Shown: positions 20,218-27,154 of the stretch, piece by piece | Layout of the letters: the number at the start of each line of letters is the position of its first letter | Numbering within the stretch: the first letter of the stretch is position 1 | Assembly: GCF_054482595.1 (NCBI RefSeq) | Contig: NZ_JBTHVH010000001.1 | DNA: 64,000 bases | From: a plasmid | Direction: 5' to 3' (one strand) | The notes under the pieces: generated by a model | Seen by the model: only the letters and a program-made list of their open reading frames with translations | Told to the model about the DNA's origin: nothing | The model's database searches: none | Program-made: the position numbers and the translations under genes

Positions 20218-20234
20218 TTTGCTCTAATAAATTG
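20218..20234 (+). promoter_or_regulatory. C1 operator (15/17) just after pacB stop, upstream of module A
   Basis: TTTGCTCTAATAAATTG. Confidence 0.55.
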
Positions 20235-20363
20235 TGTTTTTTAACTACCGATGTTACATTGAACCTGACCTCTTGCGCCTTGAGGCATTTTCGGTTTATG
20301 CTTATCAGGCACCTCAGTAAAACGGGTGCCGGGATTGGCCTCCCGCTTAAGTCTAAGGCGATA

Positions 20364-20387
20364 CAGACGCCGCTCGCGTCTTTTTTT
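20364..20387 (+). terminator. hairpin AGACGC-CGCTC-GCGTCT followed by T8
   Basis: Read directly; lies between an upstream target-like copy (GTCTAAGG, 20350-20357) and the c4-like RNA. Confidence 0.4.
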
Positions 20388-20417
20388 TGTATCGGCGTAC
20401 ACGCACACCTCTACAAT

Positions 20418-20497
20418 GGTGGGCTGTATGGGGCTACCTTCGGGTAGGCTGGTTACCTTGGACGCCAGTAAGGCCAACTCCGTACAGTCCACCGCCA
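20418..20497 (+). ncRNA. c4: c4-like structured antisense RNA (module A)
   Basis: 11-bp terminal stem GGTGGGCTGTA/TACAGTCCACC, internal hairpin with TTCG loop, 3' GCCA; single-stranded CCTTGGACG (20456-20464) complementary to CGTCTAAGG (20534-20542) on the downstream SD. Confidence 0.5.
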
Positions 20498-20553
20498 GCA
20501 AGATTGGTCTCTTCTGCGGTGGTTACATACCAACGTCTAAGGAGGCTGCCAAT

Positions 20554-20775
20554 ATGGCTACTATCCCTACCCCAACTCATCCTGAATTTATCTGGCGCTT
20601 TTACTCCTGCCAAAAACGTCACTATCACTTCGTTATTGCACCGACAGAAGATGAGGCACGTTCTCAGCTTCCTGACGCCCCATGTATTTTCTCTGCCCGT
20701 TTTTCCACTGATTCACGCAATTCTCTCAGTTACTGGTGCCTCCCTGTTAACGCTTCTGCTCAGGAGGGACTATGA
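20554..20775 (+). CDS. icd: icd-like small protein (73 aa), coupled to ant
   Basis: ATG with AAGGAGG SD; stop overlaps ant start (ATGA); track ORF 20326..20775 is an extension across the RNA. Confidence 0.55.
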   Translation: MATIPTPTHPEFIWRFYSCQKRHYHFVIAPTEDEARSQLPDAPCIFSARFSTDSRNSLSYWCLPVNASAQEGL

Positions 20776-21890
20776 GAACATCGTTAGTTACCCGTGAAGA
20801 GATGATCGAGGCAATTGAACAGCACACTGCCTGTATCAGTACCAGGGATATACCAGGCGTTATTGCCAACTACTTCATGATCACCAAACAACTTTACCGG
20901 AGAAAGGACAAGAACGCGGTTCACCGTATCCTGTTGTCTGATATCCGCGAATACCTGCTCGAACAGGGTCATCTGAATTACGCAACCGTCGCAGCCGAAT
21001 CACGCAAGGAGGCACACAGAATGAAAGCAACTAACGTTAAATCAGAAAAAATTCATGCACCTTCAGTTCAGGAATCGGAGCTGGTGGTTGTTCAGAATCA
21101 GTCTGATGAAATTCCCGTTCTGGAATGGCAGGGAGTGCGTGTAGTGACAACCGAGACTCTTGCTAGAGGGTATGGGACAGAAACAATCCGTATTCGCCAA
21201 AATCATCATGAGAACAAAGTACGCTTTGTTGAAGGGAAGCACTTTTTCAAAGTTGAAGGAGAATCATTGCGCGAGTTGAAGCACAGAGTAGCTTTAAACT
21301 ACTCTGTAAAAATTGCTCGCAATGTTCGCTCACTCACCCTCTGGACAGAACGCGGCGCAGCCCGCCACGCTAAAATGCTCGAAACCGATCAGGCATGGGC
21401 ATTCTTTGAAAAACTGGAAGACAGCTACTTCCGACAAAAAGAACAGCAACCGATCGCAATCCCCCAAACATTACCAGAAGCCCTACGCCTGGCTGCCGAA
21501 CTGGCTGAACAAAAGCAGCTTCTGGAACAGAAAGCCCACCAGCTAAATCAGCAGCTGGTGGCCGCCGCTCCTAAGGTCGATTTTGCCGACCGGGTATCAG
21601 TAGCTAAAGGGATCCTGATTGGGAATTTTGCAAAGGTTGTTGGACTTAAGCAAAACGCGCTGTTTGTCTGGTTACGGGAGAACGGCATCCTGATAGCGTC
21701 CGGTGGACGTAAAAATGTGCCGTTCCAGCAGTACATCAACGCGGGGTATTTCACGGTGAAAGAAGTGGTGCTGGATGATGAAGATGGCTACCAGATACGG
21801 TTGACGCCTCAATTAACGGGTAAAGGCCAGCAGTGGTTGACGCGTAAACTGCTCGATGCTGGCTTGTTAAAACCGGTGGCGGCTGAATAA
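20772..21890 (+). CDS. ant1: antirepressor Ant1 (372 aa) with in-frame internal start for Ant2 at Met84; C-terminal KilAC/ANT domain
   Basis: Size matches remembered 42/32 kDa Ant1/Ant2; AntA-like middle domain; conserved C-terminal block shared with 25550..26602. Confidence 0.7.
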   Translation: MRTSLVTREEMIEAIEQHTACISTRDIPGVIANYFMITKQLYRRKDKNAVHRILLSDIREYLLEQGHLNYATVAAESRKEAHRMKATNVKSEKIHAPSVQESELVVVQNQSDEIPVLEWQGVRVVTTETLARGYGTETIRIRQNHHENKVRFVEGKHFFKVEGESLRELKHRVALNYSVKIARNVRSLTLWTERGAARHAKMLETDQAWAFFEKLEDSYFRQKEQQPIAIPQTLPEALRLAAELAEQKQLLEQKAHQLNQQLVAAAPKVDFADRVSVAKGILIGNFAKVVGLKQNALFVWLRENGILIASGGRKNVPFQQYINAGYFTVKEVVLDDEDGYQIRLTPQLTGKGQQWLTRKLLDAGLLKPVAAE

Positions 21891-25549: not shown

Positions 25550-26602
25550 TCATTCAGCCGCCACCGGTTTTAACAAGCCAGCATCAAGTAGCTTGCGAGT
25601 CAACCACTGCTGGCCTTTACCCGTTAATTGGGGCGTCAGCCGTATCTGGTAGCCATTTTCATCATCCAGCACCACTTCTTTCACCGTGAAATACCCGGCG
25701 TTGATGTACTGTTGGCGCGGTACGTTTTTGCGCGCACCAAAAGCCATGAGAATGCCGTTCTGGCGCAACCATGAGAAAAGGGCGTTTTGCTTCAGTCCAA
25801 CGACCTTTGCAAAGTTCCCGATCAGGATTCCATTAGCCACTGATACCCGAACGGCAAAATCGACTTTAGGGGCTGCGGCCACCAGCTGCTGATTTAGCTG
25901 GTGGGCTTTCTGTTCCAGAAGTTGCTTTTGTTCAGCCAGCTCGGCAGCCAGGCGCAGAGCTTCGGGGAGTGTTTGGGGGAGCACTGGAGAAGCAGTGTTA
26001 GCCTGCTGCAATTCCTCCAGTTTGTCGATCAGCGAACGGCGGACCGCTTTTGACTCGCGCGCGGCAACTCGCAGGGCTTGTTTGTAGGTCATGGAGATAG
26101 TTTCAGATGTTGTGTTGTTTAATTTTTGCACTACGAAAATTTCGTAGTACTCACCATCCAGTTCATCCTTAACTCTGGCAATAAAATCATTATTGCGAAC
26201 TGGTTTTTCGCTGCATAATTTCCGCGCTTCATTGACCATCTTCAACAATGTTTGGCTGTCTATTGTGTCGCCGCTGTTGGGGATAACATTCACGGCTGGT
26301 GCAGTTGTTCCCAAAGACTTCGTAACTACAGCGTCTGGTTTGCTTGCTTTCATTCTGTGTGCCTCCTTGCGTGTTTCGGCTGCGACGGTTGCGTAATTCA
26401 GATGCCCCTGTTCGAGCAGGTATTCACGGATATCGGTTAGCAGAATGCGGTGAACCGCGTGTTTGTCCTTTCTCCGGTAAAGTTGTTTGGTGATCATGAA
26501 GTAGTTGGCAATAACGCCTGGTATATCCCTGGTACTGATACAGGCAGTGTGCTGTTCAATTGCCTCGATCATCTCTTCACGGGTGACTAATGACGTTCTC
26601 AT
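25550..26602 (-). CDS. antirepressor-like protein, paralog of Ant1 with a different central domain (350 aa)
   Basis: First about 85 aa and last about 150 aa near-identical to 20772..21890; middle unrelated. Confidence 0.65.
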   Translation of the reverse strand: MRTSLVTREEMIEAIEQHTACISTRDIPGVIANYFMITKQLYRRKDKHAVHRILLTDIREYLLEQGHLNYATVAAETRKEAHRMKASKPDAVVTKSLGTTAPAVNVIPNSGDTIDSQTLLKMVNEARKLCSEKPVRNNDFIARVKDELDGEYYEIFVVQKLNNTTSETISMTYKQALRVAARESKAVRRSLIDKLEELQQANTASPVLPQTLPEALRLAAELAEQKQLLEQKAHQLNQQLVAAAPKVDFAVRVSVANGILIGNFAKVVGLKQNALFSWLRQNGILMAFGARKNVPRQQYINAGYFTVKEVVLDDENGYQIRLTPQLTGKGQQWLTRKLLDAGLLKPVAAE

Positions 26603-26820
26603 AGTCCCTCCTGAGCAGAAGCGTTAACAGGGAGGCACCAGTAACTGAGAGAATTGCGCAAATCGGTAGAAAAGCGGGCAGAGAAAATACAGGGAGCATC
26701 CGGAAGCTGAGAACGTGCCTCATCTTCTGTTGGTGCGATAACGAAGTGATAGTGACGTTTCTGGCAGGAGTAAAAGCGCCAGATAAATTCAGGGCGTGCG
26801 CAAGGATTGGCATTAACCAT
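26599..26820 (-). CDS. icd-like small protein (73 aa), paralog of 20554..20775
   Basis: PEFIWRFYSCQKRHYHFVIAPTEDEARSQLPDAPCIFSARFSTD block shared; ATGA overlap with downstream gene. Confidence 0.55.
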   Translation of the reverse strand: MVNANPCARPEFIWRFYSCQKRHYHFVIAPTEDEARSQLPDAPCIFSARFSTDLRNSLSYWCLPVNASAQEGL

Positions 26821-26867
26821 AGTTACGGCCTCATGTACAGGTTTAACAACCTGCTATCCGCTGCTAA

Positions 26868-26947
26868 ACGGGTGGCAGGACGTGACGGGGTTAGCAGACT
26901 GGCGTACATGAAACCAGCAGGCCGAAGCCTCCCCATCACGCCCCACC
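26868..26947 (-). ncRNA. c4-like structured antisense RNA (module B), diverged from module A
   Basis: Aligns to the module A RNA with compensatory stem changes; recognition TCATGTAC complementary to GTACATGA on the icd-B SD (plus 26831-26838). Confidence 0.45.
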
Positions 26948-27121
26948 ATAATTCGGGCGTAACGTGGTTTTACGGACACAAAAATACCGCAATATCGGAT
27001 ATCTGCGGTTGTCCGCATGTACATTCAGGCTGCTAAACCCGGTCGCAGAATTTGCTACGACGGCGGAACTATAAGCCTGAATGACAGGAAGATCAATAGT
27101 CTGGCGTTCAATGGTAGTATT

Positions 27122-27154
27122 TTTGCTCCAATAAATCAAATCTATTAGAGCAAT
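27122..27154. promoter_or_regulatory. pair of C1 operator-like sites in tail-to-tail arrangement (13/17 and 16/17) between module B and the MBL gene
   Basis: TTTGCTCCAATAAATCA and reverse complement ATTGCTCTAATAGATTT. Confidence 0.55.

Follow-up and report, generated by a model that had tools for sequence, protein, structure and literature searches.

A C4-type antisense RNA and an IsrK-type leader in an additional icd-ant module of a P1-like phage-plasmid of E. coli

The DNA between pacB and c1 of a P1-like phage-plasmid raises the question of whether the stretch ahead of a 73-codon reading frame specifies a C4-like antisense RNA directed at the ribosome-binding site of that frame, as the original prediction had it for positions 20340-20560, and of what such an RNA would control. 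The stretch of DNA that we analysed (64,000 nt, called the window here; all coordinates refer to it) was found to be a P1-like (Punavirus) phage-plasmid of E. coli, in which pacA and pacB are followed by the region under study (module A), by the oppositely oriented c1 and coi, and by cre. Plasmid pAPEC201602 carries the module A region unchanged (100% identity), and phage vB_EcoM-673R5 matches it at 98.8% identity. The region is common: of 5426 complete E. coli genomes, 389 contained a match, 108 RefSeq records from E. coli were at least 99% identical to the query, 26 IMG/VR loci carried an identical C4, and the P1-like plasmids and prophages of E. coli that have module A number in the hundreds. 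For pTZ20_1P and RCS47, an insertion of an ant gene and two short ORFs between pacB and c1 has been described, with the RNAs unmentioned (PMC6906374).

A C4-type RNA and an IsrK-type leader ahead of icd and ant

The 73-codon frame (20554..20775, + strand) is an icd-like gene that matched NCBIfam phage_ICD_like with E = 2.6e-13, and its product is 80% identical to P1 Icd over 66 aligned residues. The start codon of the following antirepressor gene (20772..21890, + strand; 372 aa) overlaps the icd stop codon (ATGA). The product of this ant gene matched Pfam ANT/KilAC (3.7e-30) and ORF6N (4.6e-19), and both RefSeq and the RCS47 annotation call the gene an antirepressor. NCBIfam returned nothing for either of the two Ant proteins of the window, or for the 46-aa peptide read through C4.

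A scan of the entire window with Rfam models at the gathering threshold gave four matches, two of them to C4, one to isrK, and one to c4-a1b1. The C4 antisense RNA model (RF01695) covered 20412-20499 (+ strand) over its full length (model positions 1-87) with 75.9 bits, far above the gathering score of 45 (E = 4.7e-13), and P1 C4 scored 68.8 bits on the same model for comparison. The covariance-model search therefore bears out the C4-like antisense RNA predicted at this locus. The fold also proved stable: the minimum free energy of the 88-nt stretch was -41.6 kcal/mol (z = -3.53), and none of 200 shuffled sequences folded as well. The predicted mature form (20418..20497, + strand), delimited from the Rfam match, the fold, and the annotated P1 c4, consists of a closing stem of 16-17 bp (20417/18-20433 with 20478-20494), a UUCG-capped hairpin (20434-20447), a second hairpin with a loop of about 10-12 nt that carries the recognition segment b', a junction that carries the recognition segment a', and a 3' GCCA (20494-97). 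The UUCG hairpin and the 3' GCCA of the original 80-nt fold were retained, but its terminal stem of 11 bp turned out to be too short. Three internal helices of C4 were 100% paired in the 26 leaders compared below, with nine pairs changed on both sides.

The ends of the mature C4 (about 77-80 nt) were placed by analogy with the annotated P1 c4 and with an RNase P site, GGU, that a passage of PMC5320573 reports for P1/P7 C4, citing Hartmann 1995. Module A has features compatible with RNase P, in that its C4 carries GGU where the 5' end is predicted and an acceptor-like stem that precedes GCCA; no tRNA was found in the C4 region by ARAGORN.

Upstream of C4, the Rfam isrK model (RF01394) matched 20309-20386 (+ strand) at full length (model positions 1-77) with 60 bits relative to a gathering score of 50. 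The corresponding IsrK-family leader small RNA (20309..20388, + strand) folds into three hairpins, with target a1 in hairpin 2, target b1 in a single-stranded stretch, and an intrinsic terminator (20365..20388, + strand; stem AGACGC/GCGUCU and U8) that was also found by a terminator scan. The terminator is invariant in the A-type leaders, and b1 ends 6 nt before its stem. A hairpin followed by T8 had been noted upstream of C4 in the original prediction, and this holds with a shift in position, the stem lying at 20365-81 and T8 at 20381-88; that the upstream decoy, hairpin, and T8 together make up an isrK match had not been recognised. The predicted region began inside the isrK RNA and hence omitted a1, the conserved promoter, and a C1 operator-like site.

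On module A the c4-a1b1 model (RF03163) scored 20.5 bits, below its gathering score of 46.7, though in register. The P1-type leader of a second module in the window (module B, described below) matched isrK at 46.3 bits, terminator included, and the isrK of Gifsy-1 passes c4-a1b1 (48.1 vs 46.7 bits). These reciprocal matches indicate that the isrK and c4-a1b1 families of Rfam describe one homologous leader, and the leader of module A, being below the c4-a1b1 threshold, is therefore filed under isrK as a homologous description of the same leader.

A putative sigma-70 promoter (20273..20302, + strand) consists of a -35 hexamer TTGCGC (20273-78), an 18-nt spacer, and a -10 hexamer TATGCT (20297-302). 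It was identified by conservation, both hexamers recurring in 10 elements at a constant spacing from the 5' end of isrK; these elements include Stx phages, phiP27, yong2, cdtI, and D6. Against its proposed role, the promoter agrees poorly with the consensus (8 of 12 positions), and a sigma-70 consensus scan found no promoter on the + strand, the module A promoter falling below threshold. The transcription start would be G20309, by homology to IsrK. A site resembling the C1 repressor operator (TTTGCTCTAATAAATTG, 20218..20234, + strand), with 2 mismatches to the P1 operator consensus, lies directly 3' of the pacB stop codon and 38 bp upstream of the -35 hexamer. RCS47 and JL22 keep the site at -91 and another locus (L035) keeps it at -86, and it is absent from lambdoid relatives. 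In P1, Oc4 is equivalently placed relative to the P1c4 promoter, and we regard the module A site as a putative operator. The window contains 12 C1-operator-like 17-mers with at most 3 mismatches (for example at 7177, 23333, 23416, 27138, and 40362), compared to 0.29 expected by chance, a distribution that agrees with a P1-type C1 regulon likely to be spread across the window.

Pairing of C4 with its targets across related elements

The recognition segment b' (CCUUGGACG, 20456..20464, + strand), located in the 12-nt loop of C4 hairpin 2, is complementary over 9 bp with one G.U to the target b2 (CGUCUAAGG, 20534-42, + strand), exactly as had been claimed. This target overlaps the Shine-Dalgarno sequence AAGGAGG (20539-45), which is situated 8 nt before the icd ATG at 20554 and is partly covered by b2. 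A near-copy of the target upstream of C4, the b1 site (GUCUAAGG, 20351..20358, + strand), is single-stranded in the leader and forms a duplex of 8 bp with b', again with one G.U; the copy itself was correctly noticed, but the octamer GTCTAAGG is found at 20351-58 and not at 20350-57. Overlooked in the original prediction was a second recognition pair, in which a' (AGGCCAA, 20471..20477, + strand), in the single-stranded junction of C4, forms a perfect 7-bp duplex with a1 (UUGGCCU, 20335..20341, + strand), in the loop of leader hairpin 2, and a 7-bp duplex with one G.U with a2 (UUGGUCU, 20504..20510, + strand). The wobbles at both b sites and at a2 leave these duplexes below maximal strength, which counts against a regulatory role.

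The octamer GTCTAAGG occurs exactly twice in the 64 kb, both copies flanking C4, and its count alone is not significant, as 22 of 100 shuffled sequences contained two or more copies. Motif counts are thus indecisive, and the decisive evidence comes from a comparison of leaders. We fetched 80 loci by means of the Icd protein, plus reference phages, and aligned 27 leaders of the module A type, 26 of them distinct. Three a-specificities (UUGAGAC, UUGGAAC, and UUGGCCU) and three b-specificities (GCAAAAGG, GUCAAAGG, and GUCUAAGG) were present among the 27 leaders, in five combinations, and in every leader a', a1, and a2 shifted jointly, as did b', b1, and b2. All 7 pairs of the a'-a2 contact were kept (100% paired), 4 of them covarying, and the a1-a' contact likewise kept 7 of 7 pairs in the 26 distinct leaders, with 4 covarying. 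The b1-b' contact kept 8 of 8 pairs, 3 covarying; for b'-b2, 8 of 9 pairs were kept in all leaders, with 3 covarying, and the ninth pair exists only in the window type. Controls in which one partner was slid along the sequence gave 29-55% pairing. Therefore, all four contacts keep their pairing through compensatory changes on both sides.

By direct inspection, triads of recognition segment and two targets were also seen at equivalent positions in seven further isrK-type elements (RCS47, D6, Ss-VASD, F039, phiP27, yong2, and cdtI), and the position of a1 is held in 8 diverse elements. Fifteen P1-type leaders, among them P1, P7, and twelve variants, were inspected in the same way and also keep the triads, with five b- and two a-specificities. 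Family membership, the fold, the four complementarities with their co-evolution, and the identities of the genes are thus matters of direct observation.

The comparison also brought out an alternative helix, in which the 3' strand of the C4 closing stem with the discriminator base (CCACCGC, 20489-20495) pairs with GCGGUGG (20516-20522), placing a2 in a 20-nt hairpin loop. In 15 elements, including P1, P7, and Gifsy-1, this helix was 89% paired, with 4 of 8 pairs covarying, compared to 21-58% in slid controls. This conserved helix may gate the folding or the processing of C4 in the precursor.

Two observations were made in passing on individual loci. In L053 (IMGVR_UViG_2609459791_000005, at about 1140-1203), the coding sequence of pacB is joined directly to CCAACGTCTAAGGAGG and icd, with the promoter, isrK, and C4 deleted, such that its icd-ant copy would be without the RNA repressor. 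In Shigella phage Ss-VASD (L006), positions 3524-3607 matched sRNA-Xcc1 (RF02221) with 79.6 bits, just 3' of the Rha/Ant-like gene that follows isrK and C4; there was no match to sRNA-Xcc1 in the window.

The strength of the contacts was estimated from duplex energies and opening energies, in place of RNAcofold, which gave trivial tail pairing only for C4 with its targets and is uninformative here because it cannot represent loop-loop contacts. The predicted opening costs of b' (2.5 kcal/mol) and a' (0.4 kcal/mol) suggest that both segments are accessible, and in the terminated leader a1 and b1 are predicted to cost 1.5-1.6 kcal/mol. In the isolated icd leader, the predicted costs were 5.7 kcal/mol for a2 and 9.1 kcal/mol for b2, which counts against repression at this site, and the net binding of C4 to the isolated icd leader looks weak in these calculations; the local fold in question, however, is not a conserved one. 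When twelve 3' leaders were folded to a consensus, no conserved structure hiding the Shine-Dalgarno sequence emerged, and therefore the high opening cost of b2 should not be over-read. The low cost of opening a1/b1 compared to a2/b2 makes the leader a plausible competitor for C4, although the asymmetry is only suggestive because the mRNA fold is not conserved.

A second module and related systems

The window contains a further complete immI-type module (module B, 25550-27154, - strand), which is located downstream of cre, not beside sim/kilA. It comprises, all on the - strand, a C1 operator recognised by sequence match (27154-27138), a c4-a1b1 leader (27074-27022; Rfam, 55.5 bits), a C4 (26953-26868; Rfam C4, 71.7 bits), icd (26820-26599), and ant (26602-25550). 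With CUGCUAA as a' and UCAUGUAC as b', module B has a specificity unlike that of module A and of P1. For the b' loops of modules A and B, cognate duplexes were calculated at -8.9 to -13.9 kcal/mol and non-cognate duplexes at -3.7 to -6.8 kcal/mol, whereas the a' contacts separate less cleanly, a' of module A having a 4-bp GGCC match of -8.8 kcal/mol to the leader of module B. On these predicted energies, the two modules are orthogonal in RNA specificity. The icd genes of the two modules are nearly identical beyond the first few codons, whereas the RNA specificity regions differ. The two Ant proteins are mosaic, with residues 1-88 and the last ~140 residues nearly identical and a different middle part, the ORF6N domain being present in the Ant of module A only.

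The closest known system is the immI region (c4-icd-ant1/2) of P1 and P7, to which the locus had been likened in the original prediction, and the likeness extends to the whole architecture. The C4 fold is the same, and the order is shared with annotated P1: a C1 operator (putative in module A), promoter(s), a1, b1, a terminator-like hairpin, C4, a2, and b2 at the ribosome-binding site of icd, with icd overlapping ant. P1 has a 77-nt c4, an icd of 73 aa, and an ant1 that overlaps the icd stop codon, and the Icd of module A is also 73 aa and its gene overlaps ant. Specificity is borne by a' and b', as in P1/P7 heteroimmunity. Module A differs in its location, between pacB and c1 rather than between sim and kilA; in its isrK-type leader with a strong terminator, below the c4-a1b1 threshold; in its recognition sequences (a' AGGCCAA and b' CCUUGGAC), which include G.U wobbles; in its 3' tail, which is GCCA compared to ACC in P1/P7; and in the ORF6N middle domain of its Ant. 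It follows from the architecture, the stable fold, and the Rfam matches that the earlier reading of this locus is supported as essentially right, and was incomplete rather than wrong.

The isrK-orf45(STnc1160)-anrP region of the Salmonella prophage Gifsy-1 resembles module A in having an isrK match, a C4 match (69 bits) about 25 nt further on, which is the stretch that the authors call orf45/STnc1160, and then an antirepressor gene. In Gifsy-1, part of the IsrK transcripts read through the terminator, and an inactive 'structure A' arises when the central part of IsrK pairs in cis with the region 3' of it (PMC4825925). Short and read-through isoforms from the equivalent terminator would be expected in module A as well, and the cis pairing predicted for module A (below) corresponds to 'structure A'. 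The two differ in that module A has a separate icd between C4 and ant, which Gifsy-1 is without; in that the frame through C4 runs into icd in module A but ends in a stop overlapping the ant start in Gifsy-1; and in their hosts, a plasmid prophage under C1 compared to a lambdoid prophage with AntQ. The homologous region of Gifsy-1 was interpreted as a translated orf45 (PMC4825925), which counts against an RNA reading of module A, and the IsrK authors compared IsrK with P4 seqA/CI and not with P1 c4. Hfq binding and the activation in trans of downstream translation are known for Gifsy-1 IsrK only (PMC4825925). IsrK and c4 are listed as separate items in a 2025 review.

IsrK and C4 had already been placed side by side in GenBank LC710660 and in a paper on APSE phages. 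The Stx phages with isrK-C4 pairs (e.g., F039, GenBank LC710660) share about 78-80% identity with the window across isrK-C4-b2, and the F039 record names an 'isrK Hfq binding RNA' and a 'C4 antisense RNA'. Unlike module A, the Stx phages have other a/b specificities and no icd, with a Rha/Ant-like gene directly next.

By its description, the CI RNA of P4, with seqA and seqC, can also be likened to the C4 of module A, being a processed small RNA from its own operon leader that pairs upstream and downstream. P4 CI makes the transcription of replication genes terminate prematurely, and module A is unlike it in its downstream target, which is the ribosome-binding site before icd-ant.

Proposed regulation and alternative readings

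We consider it very probable that the region is a complete P1-immI-type RNA switch that controls a second antirepressor. The steps set out here, from transcription and processing to translational repression, Rho polarity, and the role of a competitor, are modelled on the work on P1/P7 and Gifsy-1. The promoter with a start at about 20309, 3' of the C1 operator-like site, would transcribe the leader, and many transcripts would end at the hairpin-U8 terminator to yield an IsrK-type RNA of about 80 nt with a1 and b1, while read-through transcripts would contain C4, icd, and ant. RNase P would cut between U20417 and G20418, with the tRNA-like acceptor stem and the 3' GCCA as the recognition element, and free C4 (about 77-80 nt). 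The a' junction and the b' loop of C4 would then pair with a2 and b2 on the mRNA of its own operon and cover the icd Shine-Dalgarno sequence. Without icd translation, ant would be untranslated and, through Rho-dependent polarity, untranscribed; with no ant expressed, the C1 repressor would remain active and lysogeny would be maintained. The P1/P7 C4 mechanism summarised in PMC5320573 is the one proposed here. In the predicted fold of the full-length leader, a1/b1 pair with a'/b' in cis and the C4 fold is not formed, which counts against this scheme; the formation of C4 would therefore need co-transcriptional folding or processing.

The a1 and b1 sites of the leader would compete for C4 and thereby tune or relieve repression, and the label 'decoy' given to the upstream sites appears reasonable. 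The closest experimental support is that the short IsrK of Gifsy-1 activates downstream translation in trans (PMC4825925). These sites might instead act in cis as an attenuator, with C4 binding to the nascent leader and altering termination at U8, as P4 CI RNA does on seqA, in which case C4 would autoregulate its own synthesis together with icd-ant. The short distance of 6 nt between b1 and the terminator stem fits such an arrangement, as does the presence of a terminator between the targets and C4 in every relative, P1-type leaders included, and the P4 seqA/CI analogy was raised by the IsrK authors themselves (PMC4825925). However, no alternative anti-terminator pairing was found in the module A leader, and in Gifsy-1 the constitutive expression of the C4-homologous region did not lower the effect of IsrK (PMC4825925). 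We regard attenuation as possible but unlikely; it is compatible with the immI-type switch and does not exclude it.

A protein-coding reading would make the stretch from 20416/20428 to 20553 mainly an orf45, an 'Ash family' peptide, or an N-terminal extension of Icd, and the RNA match secondary. The frame of an AUG at 20416 runs without a stop into that of icd, and the in-frame spacing (138, 135, or 129 nt) is present in 12 of 12 P1-like and lambdoid elements, the frame being open in 6. Pfam Phage_ASH (PF10554, model positions 31-107) matches the translation of 20383-20589, 20428-20529 is a partial 'ash family protein' in the PGAP annotation, the C4 gene being marked in RefSeq/PGAP as an incomplete pseudogene of that name, and translation of orf45 was reported to matter in Gifsy-1 (PMC4825925). 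Yet the AUG at 20416 has no Shine-Dalgarno sequence before it, and the frame closes after 14 codons in P1, after 31 in P7 and module B, and after 39 in RCS47, JL22, and D6, and is out of frame in Gifsy-1 (offset 134 nt). Substitutions are paired across the RNA helices and alter the peptide, a passage of PMC12197685 that cites the IsrK paper describes the nucleotide sequence as conserved and the amino-acid sequence as variable, and the c4 of P1 is an established RNA repressor. The missing Shine-Dalgarno sequence, the early closure of the frame, and the RNA-paired substitutions led us to judge the coding reading unlikely, with only a slim chance of being correct. The Phage_ASH protein family may itself be partly built on translated RNA genes. 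An even smaller chance is given to the notion that module A is a decaying passenger relic in a P1-like backbone that regulates nothing. A deletion has removed isrK and C4 from the IMG/VR contig L053, and part of the region is flagged as a pseudogene by RefSeq, but icd and ant are intact, and the identical C4 of the 26 IMG/VR loci and the 108 RefSeq records at 99% identity or more speak for maintenance. Moreover, the specificity variants always alter the RNA and both targets jointly, and this joint change requires ongoing selection.

Two features of the reading frames are recorded here in their own right. The multiple-of-three distance from the AUG conserved at the 5' boundary of C4 to the next start codon (window 20416-20556; also loci L003-L008 and L089-L092) may reflect either a coding constraint or a simple scarcity of indels, and in yong2, phiP27, and cdtI annotated CDSs traverse isrK and C4.

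The immI-type reading can be extended into a more tentative proposal, to which we give less than even weight. IsrK and the a1/b1 leader of P1, in whose record a1/b1 are still annotated only as 'putative', would be one element, a terminated small RNA that sponges C4, and P1-type loci would be three-RNA circuits of decoy, antisense RNA, and mRNA. The a1/b1 sites would set the threshold between promoter activity and antirepressor release, the alternative helix (20489-95 with 20516-22) would gate the maturation of C4, and the plasmid would carry two orthogonal circuits.

Module A is confirmed as a genuine but ordinary C4 with an IsrK-type leader, in an extra immunity module of a P1-like phage-plasmid, and it reveals no new mechanism. 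Of most use beyond this are the annotation fix, the equation of IsrK with the a1/b1 leader, and the conserved alternative helix. The annotation is corrected for a region labelled in RefSeq as a partial 'ash family protein' pseudogene, and the IsrK and C4 literatures, so far separate, become linked. As predicted from the recognition sequences, a second antirepressor switch is present in these P1-like phage-plasmids and has an RNA specificity of its own, and this second switch bears on superinfection immunity and on the induction of resistance-carrying P1-like elements.
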